From Desulfosudaceae bacterium (lineage in GTDB: Bacteria > Desulfobacterota > Desulfobacteria > Desulfobacterales > Desulfosudaceae), in the NCBI GenBank assembly GCA_963674745.2, contig CAXXDV010000001.1, positions 2,144,001 through 2,208,000 of the forward strand: a DNA stretch of 64,000 nucleotides. Direction: 5' to 3'. Of this stretch, positions 41,101 to 47,871 are shown piece by piece. Made by a program: the position numbers and the translations under genes. The number at the start of each line of letters is the position of its first letter. Within the stretch, counting starts at the first letter, position 1. The notes beneath the pieces were generated by a model. The model saw only the letters and a list, made by a program, of their open reading frames with translations, was not told where the DNA came from and did no database searches.

Positions 41101-41994
41101 GCTTCCATGCGGCCCCTGTTCAACCTCGGGCTGCTGGCTTATCTGCCTTTGATGGCGGTCCTGTTTTATCTGTATTTAAGGGAACAAGCGGACAAGCCGC
41201 CGCTGAATATGAAAAACCTGTTTCTGGCCCTGTTTCTGATCGCCGGATTCATGCTCCTGTCCATGGAAAAAAGCACCCTGCTTCAGCCCGGCAATTCGTT
41301 TTCGATCGTTTTTCACCGGACCTTCTCGATGGCGGTGAGTTCAGCGGCGGGATGGATATTATACGGCCTTGGTATGCTGATATGGCCCCGTCGGCTGGAC
41401 AAACCGTTTCGATTGGCCGGACTGATTCTGATCATGCTGGGGCTGGCCAAGTCGGTCATCCTGCCCTTTCAATTCAGATCCGTTTTCGGCGCCCTGACGC
41501 CGATCCTTAACTGGCCGACGTTTCTGTATGCCGGTTGCCTGGGAATGATCGTGTTTCTGATCCGCCGCAAAGATGATGAAAACTGGCCGGTGGCCGCTGT
41601 CTCTTCACGCCTCTGGTGGATGATCGTTTTACTGGTGATGGCGTTTTATGTGTTGAATGTTGAAATTGCCAGCGCCTTTGGCATCAGCGGCCGTTCGTTC
41701 AGTCTGAGGACCCACGGCAGTTTTGCGCATCAATTGGGTTACAGCCTGGGTTGGCTGTTTTTTTCAGTCGGTATGCTGGTCTCCGGCATCAAATGGCAGG
41801 TGGTGAAACTGCGCTGGGCGGCGCTGATCCTTCTGGTATTAACGACATTGAAAATTTTTTTCAAAGATCTCTGGTCGCTGGGTCAGGGATACCGTGTGGC
41901 CGCTTTCGTCGGGCTGGCGGTGGTCTTATATCTGGTTTCGTTTCTTTATCAACGCTATTTATCCGATGGGAGCAAAAATGCCGAAAAAACGTGA
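38131..41994 (+). CDS. Large polytopic membrane protein (DUF2339-like)
   Basis: Coiled coil and Pro-rich linker, WEMFTGTKLFAWLAG, many TMs, C-terminal KIFFKDL..L..GYRVAAFVGL. Confidence 0.8.
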   Translation: MSVFWFILLVLIISLFFKTEKIKQQFLAKLESMEQSIQQLQTRLKVMEKEPSPEDEKRAASETEPAPPETEETAEVVFDLELREEEPVPGSGFGTGPEKSRHSVSPPPVPSRPIQPREPATPEPVAIASEAAADQKVADRPGLAEKWKTVKDNVDWEMFTGTKLFAWLAGVAAFIAAGFGVKYSIDRNLVPPIVRLVIAAVAGMGLIGASFRFNRDRFDVLRHSLGAGGIGVLYSVIFAATLYYHYIPKTMGFFCLTVISAAAFVLAVHHRGITISVLGAIGAYITPVLVNTGSGNLAMLFVYLAIVNIGLFQVIVRLKSPLLLLVATAGTLIPLYLGSLFGGTVPSTGLMAGVWIADMALFSIFFIRISQTPKDSRFLLWSGIILYGAVLVMSLITTLGRPGSAPMLMLTAAVAGAVGLSLNKAGWSNLVIPYAVCTFIAAFLWTWLRFRPDSDPWYFFLFFLYGVAGGLGPVLLIRKHGVKSSFVNWFKLFPLAIAGLSLVILFKNPQISFWFWPMIICLQVLGIIASLLAGAVVQIAVLSVFLIVSGLAWLQKMPTGFVGLGFYGFILTAGAVLCVTTFLVMLKLPEWTRYLRLGQEEQVGDKAAATGLTEWMAATPVIGGFVLLTAAFIAQRPLAPHPGMATLVCFLVLALAICRRIAFQPIGMVALVSAIVAQAAWMIHPGNTIGLHFSTLAWAGALFLSALILPFLVYASPEKWKNIWMTGAFFEVCQALFIIWGADHLWEREFSGWLPLFLAVLKLPVVAILLKRLQGKAERNAILAWHGGVLLFYVSAVPIMLLDQGWIGLTLVFEASALLWLNRRIEHPGLRRVAMAMAPVGLFLLLTYLPRMKGPDSLMILNAPVLATAACVVALAFAVRLSSFPDRLLGKVDLPGYFLWLSVGTGFYLANLLVADIFGGPQTGYDLIPKCYFKASLVRSICSSLMWAGFGAVLWRVKGVPAKMRWAGMIILCLGTGWLLSFPLFQARAVASMRPLFNLGLLAYLPLMAVLFYLYLREQADKPPLNMKNLFLALFLIAGFMLLSMEKSTLLQPGNSFSIVFHRTFSMAVSSAAGWILYGLGMLIWPRRLDKPFRLAGLILIMLGLAKSVILPFQFRSVFGALTPILNWPTFLYAGCLGMIVFLIRRKDDENWPVAAVSSRLWWMIVLLVMAFYVLNVEIASAFGISGRSFSLRTHGSFAHQLGYSLGWLFFSVGMLVSGIKWQVVKLRWAALILLVLTTLKIFFKDLWSLGQGYRVAAFVGLAVVLYLVSFLYQRYLSDGSKNAEKT

Positions 41995-44797
41995 TCTGTT
42001 TTTATGGTGTCTGATTCTTTCGCTGAGTGCGATTACCGATGGCCGGGCGGATAGCCGATATGCCCTCACGCCGGCAAACGGCCCGGCGATAAGCAAACCA
42101 GGATCCATTGAAAACCCGGCGATCGTTTACGTTGAATCGTCACCGGTTTTTATATCTGTTGTCGAACCGGCCGTGAGCGTGGCGGAGACCAGTCAATATA
42201 AACCGGTAAACAGGTGGCAGGCCCAGGCCCGGGTCGACGTTCCTTCTCCAGGCCTGGTTGAGTCCACCCTGATACCGGAACTGCATCAGGTGCGGGCGGT
42301 AAAAGGCGGCCGGGAGGGTAATCAGCTGGACCTCTGCCTTCTGGGTCCGGATGGCAAGCCCCGGGGATTTGAGCTGTTCTGGCGGGAGAAGGGGCGGCAG
42401 GAAACGGTTGCTCTTAAACAGGCAAAGGTCGAACTGCTGGACGGCCGGCGCTTGCTCTGGGAGGGCGTTGTGCCGGATCAGTACATGGTAAATAAAATCA
42501 TTATCGATATTGCCGACAGTAATTATGTGGGCAAAGTGGATGTTGAGGCGCTGAATGATTCCGGATGGATCTTTCTGGTGAAGAATGCCGCTCTCTATAA
42601 AAACAACCGGTTAAACCAGGCTGAAATATCAATATTAGATGGTCCGTATCAACGGTTCAGATTATACTTCAGCGGATATGATGAAAAGTTTCGTGACAGG
42701 CCGCTTTTTGTCAGTCGCGTTCAAGCGGTCGGCACACGTTCCGGAAGAGATTACGAAAACACATCCTTTCAGTCTGAATTTGAAGAGATTACGGAAGACC
42801 GGGCAACCGTCGTCCGTGTACGGCTTCCGGGTTCAGGTATATGGATAAATGATATAAAGATAGCGACCGACGCCCTTTTCCAGGGGGAATGGCAGCTGGG
42901 ACGTGAAACCAATGTGCTCGGCAAACGGGAATTTTCAGTTATTTCAAGCGGTCGTGTCAGCCATGTCGGCGAAAACCAACAGACGCTTATGCTTGATGTC
43001 AACCAGCGGTGGCCGGATCAGATTCTGACGATCAGGATGGCTGCCAGAGATTATTTCGGCCGGATTCGGTCCGTGGACATTCGGGCCAGAATACCACGGA
43101 TGACCTTTTTTGCCGATTCAGCCGGACGCTATACCGTTCGCTCCGGCTGTGGAAACGCAAAGCCCGTTCTCGATATGGCCGGAGACCGCGGCCGCAGGAT
43201 CGATCACCAGCTTGTGCTTACGGGCATCACCCGAAATCTCAAGCGCATACACGACAACCTGGCGGAGAAATATCGCATCACCGGAGGGCCTTTTCATCAG
43301 GACGGTTATGCCTGGAAAGCGGATGTCCGGGTCGATGAGCCGGGGTTCTACCAGGTGGTTCTAAATAAACGCGTTTGTCTTGAAGAAAAATTATCCGCCC
43401 TGAGACTGGTCAGGGACAACAATCAGGTCCCCTATTTTCTGGGGTTCGAGGAAGAACGATATGTGCGGCTTGAAGCGTCGGAAGAATATGACGCCAATCA
43501 GAATCGCACTGTTTATACGGTCAGGCTTCCCTTTGCCTCATCACACTGGGCTGCCATTAAGCTGAGTGCCGAAGGCCTTTTTGAACGGACGCTTGTTTTT
43601 CAGAAGCATGTCCCGGGAATGATCGGATGGCAGCCATGGAAGACCCGGCGCTGGGTCGGCCGGCAGGGGCGAAAAACCGATTTCATTCTGGGGCTGAATG
43701 ATTTCCCCCGGGATCAGGATGAGGTCCGGCTGATTGTTGACCACGGGGACGATCAGCCTCTGGACATCCAATCCGTTTCGGCGGGCTACAGCGCCCGGGA
43801 TCTTTTTTTTCTGGCTTCGACACCGGGTACCTATACCTTGTTCGGTGGGAATCCGGACGCGTCGGCGGTCTCTTACAAAGATTTTGAAATGATAAAAGAT
43901 GAACTGCTGGCCGCAGTTCCGAGACAGGTCAAAATGGGGGATGTCGAATCCGTACAGACCGCCGGAGAAGAAAACCCGTCGGGAAAAGATATGGGCGGAC
44001 CTTTTGATGATAGCGGGTATACCTGGGCCTCATCTCTTGGAGAGATCACAAAGTCCGGTTTTTATCAGTTGCGGCTTAACCAGCAGGCGTCCCTTGAAAA
44101 TAACCGTCATGGTTTAAGGCTGGTCAGAGATAATCAGCAGGTGCCCTATTTTCTGGGAGGGCTCCAGCAGAGAGGGGTGGCACTGTCCGTTGAGAAAGAA
44201 TATGAACGCGACAGGAACGAAACGACCTGGACGGTCAAACTGCCTCGAGCTTCCGCTCATTGGCACAAGCTTCGCATGACCGCGGAAGGCGTGTTCAGCC
44301 GGGATCTTGTGCTTGAGGTCCGGAAGCCCGGGAATACCGGCTGGCAGGTGTGGAAAAGAGTTGAATGGACAAACCGGCATGCGGGTGAAACGGTTCTGGA
44401 AACCCCGTTAGCGGCATTTCCAAAGGGACAGACGGAAATCCGCCTGGTCATGCGGCATGGTGACAACAAGCCGATTGACGTTAAGAAGGTAGAGGCGGTT
44501 TACACCACCCGGGACATGTTTTTTATTGCCGGTCAGGGTGACGGTTACCGGCTGGTCGGTGGCAATCCTGCGGCTTCGGCACCTTCCTATGACCTGGCGC
44601 TGATCAGGGACCATGTTCTGAAAAAAGAACCGATAAAGATCTCCATGGATGAAATGGAGACGTTAAAGCCGGCAGCATGGAAAACAAAAATCAGCCACAC
44701 CTTCAGTGAGCAGGGATGGGGCCTTTATGCGGTTCTGGGGCTGGTGACCTTGATCCTGCTGATTGTCATCGTGCGGCTGTTTCCCAAGGAGGACTAA
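41978..44797 (+). CDS. Secreted, C-terminally anchored protein with internal repeats (DUF3999-like)
   Basis: Signal peptide; repeated GGPF..GY.W...GFYQ..LN...LRLVRDN.QVPYFLG and Y.L.GGNP.A.A.SY units; C-terminal TM; overlaps DUF2339 gene. Confidence 0.65.
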   Translation: MPKKRDLFLWCLILSLSAITDGRADSRYALTPANGPAISKPGSIENPAIVYVESSPVFISVVEPAVSVAETSQYKPVNRWQAQARVDVPSPGLVESTLIPELHQVRAVKGGREGNQLDLCLLGPDGKPRGFELFWREKGRQETVALKQAKVELLDGRRLLWEGVVPDQYMVNKIIIDIADSNYVGKVDVEALNDSGWIFLVKNAALYKNNRLNQAEISILDGPYQRFRLYFSGYDEKFRDRPLFVSRVQAVGTRSGRDYENTSFQSEFEEITEDRATVVRVRLPGSGIWINDIKIATDALFQGEWQLGRETNVLGKREFSVISSGRVSHVGENQQTLMLDVNQRWPDQILTIRMAARDYFGRIRSVDIRARIPRMTFFADSAGRYTVRSGCGNAKPVLDMAGDRGRRIDHQLVLTGITRNLKRIHDNLAEKYRITGGPFHQDGYAWKADVRVDEPGFYQVVLNKRVCLEEKLSALRLVRDNNQVPYFLGFEEERYVRLEASEEYDANQNRTVYTVRLPFASSHWAAIKLSAEGLFERTLVFQKHVPGMIGWQPWKTRRWVGRQGRKTDFILGLNDFPRDQDEVRLIVDHGDDQPLDIQSVSAGYSARDLFFLASTPGTYTLFGGNPDASAVSYKDFEMIKDELLAAVPRQVKMGDVESVQTAGEENPSGKDMGGPFDDSGYTWASSLGEITKSGFYQLRLNQQASLENNRHGLRLVRDNQQVPYFLGGLQQRGVALSVEKEYERDRNETTWTVKLPRASAHWHKLRMTAEGVFSRDLVLEVRKPGNTGWQVWKRVEWTNRHAGETVLETPLAAFPKGQTEIRLVMRHGDNKPIDVKKVEAVYTTRDMFFIAGQGDGYRLVGGNPAASAPSYDLALIRDHVLKKEPIKISMDEMETLKPAAWKTKISHTFSEQGWGLYAVLGLVTLILLIVIVRLFPKED

Positions 44798-44959
44798 AGA
44801 CGCGCAGACGGACGGTCTCCAGTCCAATGCCACTCACGCTGGATCCGCCGTGATTTCCGGATTTCCGGGGACATCCATGATAAGTAAAGTCAAGGGAAAA
44901 AAAGAGTTTTCCCATCCGCCAAAGAATACCCCCTGGTGGTTATGTTCCCGGTTCTCCGC

Positions 44960-45180
44960 GTAAGCTCTTTTTAATCTGTGTCTATTCGATCGACGGTCTG
45001 CCGCGACCAGACATCCATTTGCTGTATCAGCCGCTTTATCCTTAATAAATAAAGCGGCGTCACAGAAGATTGAGTTTGGGTTAAAACCCGCCGGCCTCGA
45101 AACAGTATAAAAGATTGTATCTCGATCGGCTGTTCGATCACACAGTCCCCAAAACGCGAGGCCCGGCGGGAAAGCAACAG
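44960..45180 (-). ncRNA. Putative bridge RNA / seekRNA of the IS110 element (ends approximate)
   Basis: Stem 45087-45099/45157-45170 enclosing loops matching the target; hairpin 45030-39/45049-58 next to ACATCCAT (45011-18), which matches the element end. Confidence 0.75.
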
Positions 45181-45206
45181 ACGGATAAACCGTTATTTTA
45201 TAAAAT

Positions 45207-46244
45207 CTATGCCGCTTCCTGTTCTTCTCCTTTCGGCAGTTCAAACGTCTTTTGTCCTTTATCAACCGCAAGCATGTAGGCGACAAGCTTTCGTGCTACC
45301 GCCAGCGTGGCCCGGTTTTTATTGCCTTTCTCGATCTCTCGGGCATGCACCTCGGCCAGTTGCGGGTTCCAGTAAGGTGCCAGTTTGGCCGCTTCGACCA
45401 ATATCGTTTGTAAATGTTTGTTTCGCTTCTTCGATATTGGGCCTCTCATATTTTTGCCGGCCGACTCTCTTTGAGCGCTGCATAACCCGCAATAACTGAC
45501 AGCTTTCCGGGCCGATGAAAAACGGCCAGGATCTCCGATCTCCAGTGCCCAGGTCAGGGCCGTAACCTCTCCGACACCCCTGATGGACATCAGTCGATCC
45601 ACCCGTTCTTTTATCTGCTCATTATTGCGGAGCACCTTTAACAGTTTTTTTTGGATATCGGTAAACATCTCATATCCGGATCGGGACATGCGCAGCAGGT
45701 TTATTACCGACTCGGGCACATCTTCCATGTTCTCCAGCAACTCACGAAAATATTTTTTCCGGTGCAGTCTGCTTTTGGTGTATTCCGCGCCGCATTCCAT
45801 CAGGAGGCCGGATATTTTGTTTTGCATACGAACCGCCTCTCTGACGATATGATTGCGATAACGGAGAATGCGGCGCAACTCCCGCATATCCTCAGGCATC
45901 ATGTAACACTCCGGCAATAAATCGCACCGCAACAGATCGGCAATCATTCGCGCGTCTACTTTGTCGTTTTTCTTTTTGGATGCAGAAATAGCCTTGAGCA
46001 TCTGGGGATGGGCGACCTTCAACTCCTCAGCATACGGTTTTAAAAAATCATAAATCCATCCTGAAAACATCGTTGCTTCCATGGCGCCTGTCCACGGCCC
46101 TGGCAGACCATCTGCCCAGTGGGTTAAAGCGGAACGCGTAGCGGATATCACCCCTTGTCCGATAACGGTTCCGTCTTGTTGTTTAATGCAATAAGCGATA
46201 GTTTTCTTGTGAATGTCCAGTCCGATATAGTATGATTTTTTCAT
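45207..46244 (-). CDS. IS110-family transposase / bridge recombinase
   Basis: YIGLDIHK, MEAT, KNDKVDA (DEDD), IRGVG, QRESAGK (Ser), AVARKL; SD AGGAGG. Confidence 0.95.
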   Translation of the reverse strand: MKKSYYIGLDIHKKTIAYCIKQQDGTVIGQGVISATRSALTHWADGLPGPWTGAMEATMFSGWIYDFLKPYAEELKVAHPQMLKAISASKKKNDKVDARMIADLLRCDLLPECYMMPEDMRELRRILRYRNHIVREAVRMQNKISGLLMECGAEYTKSRLHRKKYFRELLENMEDVPESVINLLRMSRSGYEMFTDIQKKLLKVLRNNEQIKERVDRLMSIRGVGEVTALTWALEIGDPGRFSSARKAVSYCGLCSAQRESAGKNMRGPISKKRNKHLQTILVEAAKLAPYWNPQLAEVHAREIEKGNKNRATLAVARKLVAYMLAVDKGQKTFELPKGEEQEAA

Positions 46245-46581
46245 GGGAGACCTCCTTGTTTGTGGATTCAGATTCTGAGCAAGCCCAGTGCCTGTCTCAG
46301 CCGGTATTTTAAATACCACATCTGCCACCGGGAGGTCTCCTCTCTCAATTAACTTACTTATGCATTCAAACAGTATAATTATTTATTCATGTAATATATA
46401 GTTACAAAGAAATAGAGATGTCCCCAGAATTGCAGAATTGCAATATAGTCTTAGTTCGGGGTTGGGACTGGGTCTGCCAGTACTAAAATTTAGCACAATA
46501 ATGGATAATTTTGATGATTGGGTACTTGATCATTTTTTTAATGATGGTGATATTTGTGAATGATGGATATGGTGTGATTAG

Positions 46582-46779
46582 ATGAACCTATCAAGCATTT
46601 TATATTATATTGGTGCGTTTTTTCTAATTGTGACAGGACTTTGCGGAGCTTTAATTACGATTAGAATAAATTGGATTAAAAACAAGGATCAAAATATTGA
46701 CCTTTTAATAGGCAAAATTGCTTTTTTTTCAATATGTTTAGCTATTATTTTCATATTTATTGGTGTTGGTATTAGTTAG
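46582..46779 (+). CDS. Small AT-rich two-TM hypothetical protein
   Basis: 65-aa ORF with two hydrophobic helices in a low-GC island. Confidence 0.55.
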   Translation: MNLSSILYYIGAFFLIVTGLCGALITIRINWIKNKDQNIDLLIGKIAFFSICLAIIFIFIGVGIS

Positions 46780-46926
46780 TGCCCATCCAAAAATATTAAA
46801 TTTGGGGACAAATAGGGTCTATAATTTTATGCGTTTTTTCTATAGTATAGTGCGTTGACTCGTCATGGGCAACCTTCGGTTGGCCCATGGCACCCAATTG
46901 ATTTTTGCAGCACCTCAAACCCCGCC

Positions 46927-47051
46927 CCTTAATCACTTAATCACTTAATCACTTAATCACATAACCACTTAATCACATAACCACTTAACACATTAAAACC
47001 TAAAACCTTAACACCCCCTCGACCCCTCGACCCCTTGACTCCTCGAACCCT
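46927..47051. repeat. Adjacent 8-bp-period tracts (CTTAATCA, TAAAACC, CCCTCGAC families)
   Basis: CTTAATCA x4 plus variants, then CCCCTCGA repeats running into the SDR 3' end. Confidence 0.85.
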
Positions 47052-47871
47052 TTCTTTTCGCCACGAATTTGACGATCAAATCCGAAAAGAAATGGGTCAG
47101 GTGTCCGTTGCTGATGCGGTGGTTAAAATACAGGTATCGGGCCATCAGCCCCGGCACCACCATGAACCTTTTTTTCTTGATGGCTTTGACGATGGTCCGG
47201 GCCACGTATTCGGGCTTGAGCAGCCCGGCCATGCTTTTCACGGCCCGGGCCTCAGGCGGCAGGGTGGGGGCTTCTTCGGCCACAAAGGGCGTGTCCACTT
47301 CCGGCGGGCAGACCACGGTCACGTCGATGTTCATCAGTTTCAGCTCGCTGCGCAGGCACTCGGAGAGCCCCACCAGGGCGTACTTGCTGGTGCTGTAAAG
47401 GCTGTAGCCGAACATGCCGATCAGGCCGGCCTCTGAAGAGAGGTTGACGATATGGCCCCGGCCGGATTTGCGCATATAAGGCAGAAGCGCGGCAATGGTA
47501 TTGCGCGTGCCGTAAACGTTGATCTTCATGACCCTGTCAAAATCTTCGTAGGAAATGTTTTCAAAATAGTCGGCCGTTCCGATGCCGGCGCTGTTGATCA
47601 GAATGTCCGGTACACCGAATTGATCAACGGCGGTTTTAATTTTGTGCTGCACATCGTCATTGTCGGCCACGTCCATGGATATGGTGTCGATTCGCTGGTT
47701 TTTGTCAACACTTCCGGTTTCAAGCTTTTGCCTGGCTTTGTCCAGTCCACCCTGTTTCCGGGCAAACAGTATCAGGCTGCACCCTTCAGCAACAAGCAGG
47801 CGGGCGGTTTCAAGGCCGATGCCGCTGGAGCCGCCGGTAATATAGGCGAGTTTTCCGGAAAAAAAAGCCAT
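47008..47871 (-). CDS. SDR oxidoreductase, 3-ketodihydrosphingosine reductase-like
   Basis: TGGSSGIG, NSAG, FGYSLYSTSKYALVGLSECLRSE, CPPEVDTP. Confidence 0.8.
   Translation of the reverse strand: MAFFSGKLAYITGGSSGIGLETARLLVAEGCSLILFARKQGGLDKARQKLETGSVDKNQRIDTISMDVADNDDVQHKIKTAVDQFGVPDILINSAGIGTADYFENISYEDFDRVMKINVYGTRNTIAALLPYMRKSGRGHIVNLSSEAGLIGMFGYSLYSTSKYALVGLSECLRSELKLMNIDVTVVCPPEVDTPFVAEEAPTLPPEARAVKSMAGLLKPEYVARTIVKAIKKKRFMVVPGLMARYLYFNHRISNGHLTHFFSDLIVKFVAKRKGSRSQGVEGSRGC

Follow-up and report, generated by a model that had tools for sequence, protein, structure and literature searches.

An IS1111-type insertion sequence in a Desulfosudaceae genome, very probably guided by a bispecific RNA encoded downstream of its recombinase gene

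A 64,000-nt stretch of a Desulfosudaceae bacterium genome (hereafter the window) contains, at 44871-46371 on the minus strand, an insertion sequence (IS) of the IS110 family with a long non-coding region downstream of its transposase gene (tnp). A first-pass annotation, made from the letters of the window, had read in this region an RNA with two loops of the IS1111 type, one matching the insertion site and the other the ends of the element. The locus therefore raises the question of whether the recombinase is directed by an RNA that the element itself carries. Our analysis indicates that it very probably is: we read the locus as an intact, recently active IS110-family element of IS1111-type architecture, whose DEDD/Ser recombinase is guided by a bispecific RNA encoded downstream of tnp. 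It is a clear further example of the same mechanism as described in 2024. Coordinates below are those of the window, motifs are given in IS orientation unless a strand is named, and L and G numbers denote the loci and genomes compared.

The limits of the element were set from two genomic copies together with the ends conserved in relatives. In the assembly of its own genome (G000; three contigs, 5.55 Mb), contig 3 carries another copy, which is 100% identical by BLAST and occupies the same 16-bp target. End alignments give the target of both copies as TATACT-GT-CCCCGGAA, with GT on either side of the IS; the sequence common to them starts TATACT-GT-TTGAATGC... and ends ...CATGGAT-GT-CCCCGGAA. 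In relatives the left end (LE) is conserved as TTGAATG... and the right end (RE) as ...CATGGAT, which places the IS limits: the body spans 44873-46369 (1,497 bp), its right end closing with ...CTTGACTTTACTTATCATGGAT, and the GT core (AC on the plus strand) lies at both junctions, 44871-72 and 46370-71, as GT does in nearly all relatives. The whole element thus comprises the IS body and one core copy per junction. The limits proposed earlier, 44874-46372, captured the element and misplaced its boundaries by 1-3 nt, while the flanks quoted with them, GGGGAC (plus strand, 44867-72) and ACAGTATAA (plus strand, 46370-78), are as described. Because the two 100% identical copies stand at unrelated loci and share only TATACT-GT ... 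GT-CCCCGGAA outside the element, we consider it to have been active recently. In sequencing run X1 the element was assembled as a repeat contig of 1,511 nt, about twice as deep as its flanks.

The anatomy is that of the IS110 family: terminal inverted repeats are lacking, the target is fixed and a short core stands at either junction. In minus-strand order it consists of a 125-nt left end including the 5' untranslated region (UTR; 46245-46369), the tnp open reading frame (ORF), a 334-nt non-coding region and the right end (44873-44893, with the terminal CATGGAT), so that, as in IS1111 elements, the long non-coding region is the one downstream of tnp. An inverted-repeat search recovered the subterminal repeats noted previously, an 8-bp pair ATAAGTAA/TTACTTAT at plus-strand 44880-87 and 46354-61; this length is within the IS1111 range of 7-17 bp, the arms stand 8 nt in from the left IS end and 7 nt in from the right one, and both are altered together in L027 and L073. 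CTTGAC...ACTTATCATGGAT is likewise kept in the right ends of nearly all relatives. Searching the host genome by tblastn returned these two close copies and five distant IS110-family genes (24-30% identity), and blastn-short found no orphan ends or orphan non-coding region in it.

The tnp gene (45207-46244, minus strand, ATG at 46244) encodes a 345-aa protein, within the 330-350 aa of IS1111 transposases. The DEDD+Ser assignment made from the letters was borne out by Pfam matches to DEDD_Tnp_IS110 (PF01548, 1.6e-20) and Transposase_20 (PF02371, 2.9e-20), that is, a RuvC-like DEDD domain with four acidic residues (D10, E56, D94 and D97) and a C-terminal Tnp domain with the catalytic serine S261. 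The NCBIfam model NF033542, 'IS110 family RNA-guided transposase', is matched at 210.8 bits (cut-off 140). D10 is conserved in 69 of 72 distinct relatives, and E56, D94, D97 and S261 in every one of the 72. A sequence search of the PDB returned only IS621 and ISCro4 (E ~1e-7); the alignment with IS621 (PDB 8wt6, E 7e-8) is partial, and the catalytic motifs coincide in it. IS5075 and IS4321 match over their full length at 25-26% identity, and other IS110-family matches score alike.

Downstream of tnp, the 334-nt non-coding region folds better than its shuffles (z -3.6), and each of its two modules does likewise. To assess conservation, 79 related loci were fetched (62-73% identity), mostly from metagenome-assembled genomes labelled Thermodesulfobacteriota or 'delta proteobacterium'. 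The architecture downstream of tnp is kept in 74 of 81 records; nine of the 81 were left unscored, seven having no anchor motif (L004, L007, L018, L023, L026, L067 and L074) and two failing the stem search (L032 and L037). The fold alignment comprised 57 of 61 unique RNA regions, with L045, L056, L058 and L065 omitted as over-long or near-duplicate. On these 57 sequences RNAalifold proposes 34 pairs, 19 of them with compensatory changes, so the stems predicted at first sight are indeed conserved. A standard pair is formed in 96.7% of cells, compared with 35-43% when partners are slid by 1-3 columns, and the 19 compensatory pairs compare with 3-11 under the same displacement; 0/500 shuffles reach either value.

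The consensus helices are the 12-bp outer stem of loop 1, a variable inner hairpin, the hairpin of loop 2 and a 3' hairpin, and the loop strands are unpaired in it except for an invariant AUCU/GGAU pairing inside loop 2. The target-binding loop module (loop 1; 45087-45170, minus strand, 84 nt), for which the fold (z -3.6) and covariation both speak, is closed by its outer stem of 45170-45157 (CCCGCCGGGCCUCG) with 45099-45087 (CGAGGCCGGCGGG), in which seven of the 12 pairs are compensatory, and encloses a GAUCG/CGAUC inner hairpin that varies in relatives with 4/4 compensatory pairs. The donor-binding loop module (loop 2; 45011-45075, minus strand) is conserved in relatives, and the pairs of its hairpin (45065-45022, containing 45058-45049 with 45039-45030) covary. 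It is followed by the 3' hairpin at about 44991-45010 (consensus GGUCGC...GCGGACC; four of seven pairs compensatory). The outer stem, the GAUCG/CGAUC hairpin and the second hairpin had all been placed at these minus-strand coordinates by the first-pass annotation, as had the loop strands UUUUGGGGAC (45154-45145), UUAUACUGU (45110-45102) and AUGGAUGU (45018-45011).

We then asked what the strands of loop 1 read. The 5' strand, UUUUGGGGAC, forms 10 bp with GTCCCCGGAA of the top strand, two of them G:U, and contains the 5' target guide UUUUGGGG+AC (45154-45145, minus strand). The 3' strand, UAUACUGU, has the same sequence as TATACTGT, which makes the bottom strand its pairing partner; this loop strand contains the 3' target guide UAUACU+GU (45109-45102, minus strand), after which comes an invariant unpaired UU. 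Both halves of the target, the left half TATACT (46372-46377, minus strand), read by the 3' strand, and the right half CCCCGGAA (44863-44870, minus strand), read by the 5' strand, are identical in the two copies. The loop strands thus pair with opposite target strands around the core, with the top-strand match lying 5', an order known from IS1111 seekRNAs (PMC11187229). The earlier match of the 5' guide to GGGGAC holds and extends further, to 8 nt plus the core. The 3' guide was correctly recognised and taken as too long at 9 nt: 6 nt and the core are read, and since the second copy has G at the ninth base, the match there is due to chance. In the window alone, only 6/100,000 dinucleotide-preserving shuffles of the 334-nt region hold both the 8-mer and the 10-bp pairing with G:U allowed.

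The strongest test comes from the relatives, in which the conserved stems served to locate the loop strands and the conserved ends to locate the flanks; duplicates were removed, and each guide was compared with its own and with other loci's flanks. Covariation of this kind had been proposed as a check, and the outcome is strongly positive. The 3' strand matches its own left flank at 5.85 of 9 positions, compared with 3.63 after permutation (59 unique pairs, 46 distinct guides; z 12.5), and the 5' strand scores 5.65 with its own right flank, compared with 4.57 (49 unique pairs, 30 distinct guides; z 6.4); 0/20,000 permutations reach either observed value. Without a fixed register, the covariation is reached in 0/20,000 permutations for the 3' strand with the left flank and in 8/20,000 for the 5' strand with the right flank. 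Own-guide matches of the 3' strand at positions 1-6 from the core are 0.98, 0.88, 0.80, 0.68, 0.86 and 0.80, compared with 0.98, 0.38, 0.33, 0.28, 0.46 and 0.37 for the guides of other loci, while positions 7-9 are at background, so that no signal extends past position 6. With the 5' strand, it is at positions 4-8 that cognate flanks pair better than non-cognate ones, positions 1-3 being a near-invariant CCC. The guide code therefore reads as 6 + GT + 8, exactly the 16 bp common to both genomic copies. The outer flanks of the loci have a mean identity of 0.25, with similar pairs in 1/2,145 comparisons on the left and 0/1,275 on the right, and the insertions are therefore independent events, not inherited ones. 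Clear retargeting is seen in L010 (GGCGCT-GT-CCCTATTT), L028, L057, L059 and L078, and in L028 a GA core is read by a UC guide. The suggestion that the element is potentially programmable is to this extent supported by natural retargeting, as read from the sequences of relatives.

The core itself varies among the relatives. UC replaces AC in the 5' target guide of L028, L030, L031, L008, L014, L025, L047, L053, L063 and L079, and L028, L030 and L031 have GA at the right junction and an unaltered GT at the left one, so the two core copies can differ, which hints at a top-strand exchange between the two core bases. A further group (L021, L040, L044, L049, L050, L072 and L075) has a 5' target guide without the A of the core complement (GGGGCU); L050 and L072 nonetheless pair perfectly with the 8 bases after the core, and L075 has GC at its right junction.

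Loop 2 matches the RE-LE junction, in agreement with the bispecific IS1111-type arrangement claimed for it. Like the IS ends, it is nearly invariant among relatives. The 3' donor guide AUGGAU+GU (45018-45011, minus strand, followed by CU) equals RE positions -6 to -1 and the core, repeating the 6 + 2 layout of loop 1; where RE has G>A at -4 (CATAGAT; L009, L024, L028 and L062, three unique pairs), the RNA reads AUAGAU in all four. For the left donor guide two strings, CCAAAC and CUCAAUC, had been left as alternatives. In L047, L059, L063 and L073 LE has G>A at +3 (TTAAATG), and in all four the RNA shows C>U, giving CUUAAU for CUCAAU. Because this RNA change accompanies the LE change, the compensatory substitutions settle the guide as ACUCAAUC, the CUCAAUC reading, ACUCAA+UC (45075-45068, minus strand). 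LE +4 A>G (L013 and L076) gives a G:U pair with this guide. The other candidate fails, as its variants ignore LE: 10 of 11 loci with CCCTAAC or CACTAAC in place of CCCAAAC and a known LE keep TTGAATG, and six other ends, with TAGAATG, have an unchanged CCCAAAC or TCCAAAC. The donor loop thus shows a perfect 3' strand (6 + 2 nt), a 5' strand pairing at 6/8 positions and one compensatory position per side.

A further regularity links the loops. Both 3' strands have the form N6-GU-NN-stem, in which NN is an invariant UU in loop 1 and CU in loop 2 and hardly varies. The UU of loop 1 is the same as the TT with which the left end begins, and the CU of loop 2 can pair opposite the near-invariant CC that starts the right target flank. 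It is conceivable, though we hold it only tentatively, that the second module is a true donor-binding loop with built-in asymmetry and that both loops carry IS1111-type handshake dinucleotides; each 3' strand would then be a 10-nt copy of the recombinant junction, not of the substrate. The N6-GU-NN pattern resembles the handshake guides of IS621 in the available text of PMC13626964. If true, the handshake dinucleotides and the constant U-opposite-T mismatch described below would explain why T-GT-CC is kept in all natural targets of the clade irrespective of the guides, and would also explain what the IS1111 'long seekRNA' is for.

These features suggest the following mechanism. The recombinase would bind an RNA made from the downstream region, in which the 5' strand of loop 1 (8 nt + AC) would pair with the top strand of GT+CCCCGGAA and the 3' strand (6 nt + GU) with the bottom strand of TATACT+GT, together defining the 16-bp site with its GT core. 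Loop 2 would hold the joined ends of a circular form (...CATGGAT-GT-TTGAAT...) in the geometry of loop 1, and recombination at the core would insert the element and leave GT on both sides. Joining of the ends brings a candidate -35 element, TTGACT (44893-44888, in the right end), 17 nt upstream of a candidate -10 element, TTGAAT (46369-46364, in the left end), preceded by TG; this arrangement was read by eye. The circle junction would thus probably assemble a promoter, TTGACT-17-TTGAAT, from which a single transcript would cover tnp and the RNA, while the integrated state has a weak consensus promoter site in the flank only. That tnp and the long RNA are transcribed together from a junction promoter of this kind has been proposed in the seekRNA paper (PMC11187229).

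Where do such elements insert? A perfect 16-mer is nowhere free in the host genome, which does carry five single-mismatch sites and 23 with up to two mismatches, compared with three for the reversed control. When up to three mismatches are allowed there are 89 sites in all, of which the stretch of contig 3 at 1.50-1.625 Mb contains 30, and the second IS copy is within this cluster. Cluster sites are often inverted pairs (~62-bp palindromes) or stand head to head, between unrelated gene modules. Such sites occur in 12/12 other genomes of the same family searched, and the exact 16-mer is uninterrupted in at least six relatives (at least nine in G006, five in G011, two in G002 and one each in G005, G009 and G024). 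It serves there as empty-site evidence, marking the flanks as target and not as element; of the empty site anticipated by the first-pass annotation, this uninterrupted 16-mer was found elsewhere in relatives, and the orthologous allele was not found in the 30 relatives searched. In G006, G009 and G011, genes for Y1 (IS200-like) transposases of 224-231 aa have the repeat on their flanks; among the six genes examined the repeat is inverted on both sides of four and present on the upstream side of all six. Around the three Y1 genes of the host genome, a search to 1.5 kb with up to four mismatches allowed found no such site. Inverted repeats around a Y1 gene are the arrangement typical of repetitive extragenic palindromic (REP) sequences and their REP-associated tyrosine transposases (RAYT), and REP sequences are well-known targets of IS110-family and IS1111-group elements. 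The natural targets thus look like the arms of a REP-like repeat in a REP/RAYT-type system. Readings of the target repeat as a promoter (sigma-54 or sigma-70), as an integron attC site or as the terminal repeat of a transposon were considered and dropped, as Y1 genes lie between its inverted copies. IS5075 and IS4321, of the IS1111 family, target the terminal repeats of Tn21-type transposons, with enterobacterial plasmids as hosts; the present element is like them in using one fixed position and orientation within the repeat of another mobile element, and differs in the target.

The unit of the target repeat, of ~26 nt, has the consensus, roughly, GAAATAGR-TATACTGTCCCCGGAA-TT and is concentrated in 125 kb of the host genome (G000 contig 3, ~1,500,000-1,625,000; L092-L094), where the palindromes separate modules for GntR with a glycyl-radical enzyme, a hydrolase/aminotransferase, NUDIX and Dus. 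The GGAA of the repeat is often followed by short direct repeats whose unit varies by copy. The repeat-flanked Y1 genes are on G011:C26 and C52, on G006:C76, C86 and C137, and on G009:C14 (locus L105, 5218-5883), with a conserved promoter-like block, TTGACA-17-TATTTT, between repeat and gene.

Could the apparent guides have another origin? The flanking 8 + 8 bases might belong to a longer IS of 1,531 bp, whose termini are merely echoed in the non-coding region without RNA guidance. BLAST does join the two copies over 1,531 bp including these flanks, and two copies in one genome are insufficient alone to set a boundary. Copies of one IS in other genomes (L051, L052, L054, L056, L058, L060 and L069), however, differ in their flanks, LE and RE are conserved up to TTGAATG and CATGGAT while the flanks change with the loop, and the flanking 16-mer is found without the IS, uninterrupted, in the repeat family of the host genome and exactly in at least six relatives, which makes a longer element very improbable. 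It is even harder to credit that the downstream region is an ordinary 3' UTR, a terminator or a protein-binding scaffold with chance or compositional matches to the flanks. The 10-bp pairing with G:U allowed does arise in 3.2% of shuffles, because the non-coding region is G-rich, and the fold of the window's own sequence partly pairs the two guides with each other; both matches jointly, however, arise in only 6/100,000 shuffles, the loops change with the flanks across independent insertions to a degree reached by 0/20,000 permutations, and the stems covary with the loops unpaired in the consensus.

A more serious alternative, though one we consider unlikely, is that the anatomy is right and the element now silent or defective, for instance because the RNA is not made when it is integrated, the copies being relics of a burst. 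The bridge RNA of IS621 is weakly expressed from genomic loci and its excision inefficient, according to the available text of PMC13626964, and a perfect free target is absent from the host genome. Against silence stand the identity of the two copies over ~1.5 kb, an open reading frame with intact catalytic residues, guides that both fit both occupied sites, and the five one-mismatch sites still available. We therefore retain the reading of an intact and recently active RNA-guided element.

Other observations weigh against parts of this reading. The left flank (44200-44870) was not found in any of the 30 relatives searched, so no orthologous empty allele is at hand among them. The four sequencing runs (X1, X3, X4 and X6) were compared as contigs, those of X6 being without the flanks, and neither the circle junction nor the empty-site joint is present in the contigs of any of them. 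The donor guide ACUCAA-UC pairs with GT-TTGAAT at 6/8 positions only, with constant mismatches of U opposite the core T (position 2) and C opposite LE +5, and seven loci have A at LE +2 with unchanged RNA. A short ISEc11 RNA without the second module sufficed for transposition (PMC11187229), and the donor loop may therefore be non-essential. RNAalifold favours AUCU paired with GGAU inside loop 2, so that the free RNA may, in this model, close the loop. The serine motif, GLCSAQRESAG (G253-L-C-S256-AQRE-S261-A262-G263), is of the form GL-S----SA, with P->S and SG->SA relative to the published GL-P----S(T)G, and is invariant in the clade; rare TA variants of the IS1111 motif are mentioned in PMC11187229. 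Finally, Rfam 15 gave no match in 44000-47000 at E <= 1, which means merely that no curated model fits.

Comparison with described systems places the element closest to the IS1111 seekRNA elements (ISEc11, ISPa11, ISKpn4 and ISPst6; Siddiquee et al. 2024, PMC11187229). It shares with them the long non-coding region downstream of tnp, the subterminal inverted repeats, a transposase of ~340 aa, and a top-strand match lying 5' of the bottom-strand match and overlapping it at the insertion point, and the natural retargeting with conserved stems seen in its relatives is also known from ISEc11 and ISXne4. At 84 nt for loop 1 and ~166 nt for the two loops together, its modules are similar in size to the short (82-96 nt) and the long (148-172 nt) seekRNAs of that study. 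In contrast, the target, the GT core, the ends and the serine motif (S...SA instead of P...S(T)G) differ, and protein identity with the IS1111 members compared (IS5075 and IS4321) is only ~26%. Whereas PMC11187229 left the role of the long RNA open, the second loop here shows compensatory changes with both IS ends. Bridge RNAs have also been predicted in the right end of 93.0% of IS1111 elements, with donor-binding nucleotides noted, in the available text of Durrant et al. 2024 (PMC11208160).

With IS621 and ISCro4, as far as the available texts go (PMC11208160; Hiraizumi et al. 2026, PMC13626964), the element shares the DEDD + Ser recombinase, a bispecific RNA with target and donor loops, the reading of one DNA strand by each loop strand around a 2-nt core, and the targeting of REP-type repeats. 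The RNA of IS621, however, lies upstream of tnp (in LE), its strand matches are in reversed order, the core is CT and the target 14 bp; here, by contrast, the RNA is encoded downstream, with a GT core and a 16-bp target (6+2+8), and the protein similarity is weak. ISPpu9 of Pseudomonas putida (PMC12288879, available text) is another IS110-family element inserted in REP sequences, and its transposase gene is followed downstream by a gene for a small RNA; it has extra orphan copies of that RNA gene, whereas none was found here by blastn-short in the genome.

The picture of how seekRNA and bridge RNA systems work is unchanged by this locus. What it adds is a natural guide code (6 + GT + 8, G:U tolerated) for a divergent IS1111-type clade, in which ~46 left and ~30 right distinct guides on independent insertions form a comparative data set for engineering IS1111-type recombinases, and comparative support for the view that, in an IS1111-type element, what the second RNA module reads is the ends of the element itself. 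It also presents one mobile element homing into REP-like repeats that flank another, the Y1 transposase, a known family habit now seen in Thermodesulfobacteriota-type genomes.

The IS lies between two genes and disrupts neither. On one side a 967-aa protein gene (41894-44797), with a sub-threshold DUF3999 match, ends 74 nt from the IS; on the other, a small ORF is followed by a short-chain dehydrogenase gene (47008-47871). The five distant IS110-family genes of the host genome lie on G000 contig 3 at ~1,843,555-1,846,987, 2,262,756-2,263,631, 2,335,162-2,336,133 and 2,594,355-2,595,230, and two pairs among them each resemble copies of one element. The sole joint found in the run contigs, 44913>45003 in one X1 contig (side 22), probably comes from another element. 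Many other contigs of X1, X6, X3 and X4 share with 44855-44913 only the last ~40 nt of RE plus the target, with 2-6 differences and some of them deep (up to ~230), and these probably belong to related elements in other organisms of the samples. The right end of L033 shows an apparent 9-nt tandem duplication of the tip (CATGGAT-AT-CATGGAT-GT-CCCC). In the left end, a perfect 10-nt inverted repeat, 46340-46331 with 46255-46246 (GGAGACCUCC / GGAGGUCUCC, IS strand), spans the ribosome-binding site of tnp and would sequester it in a long hairpin.

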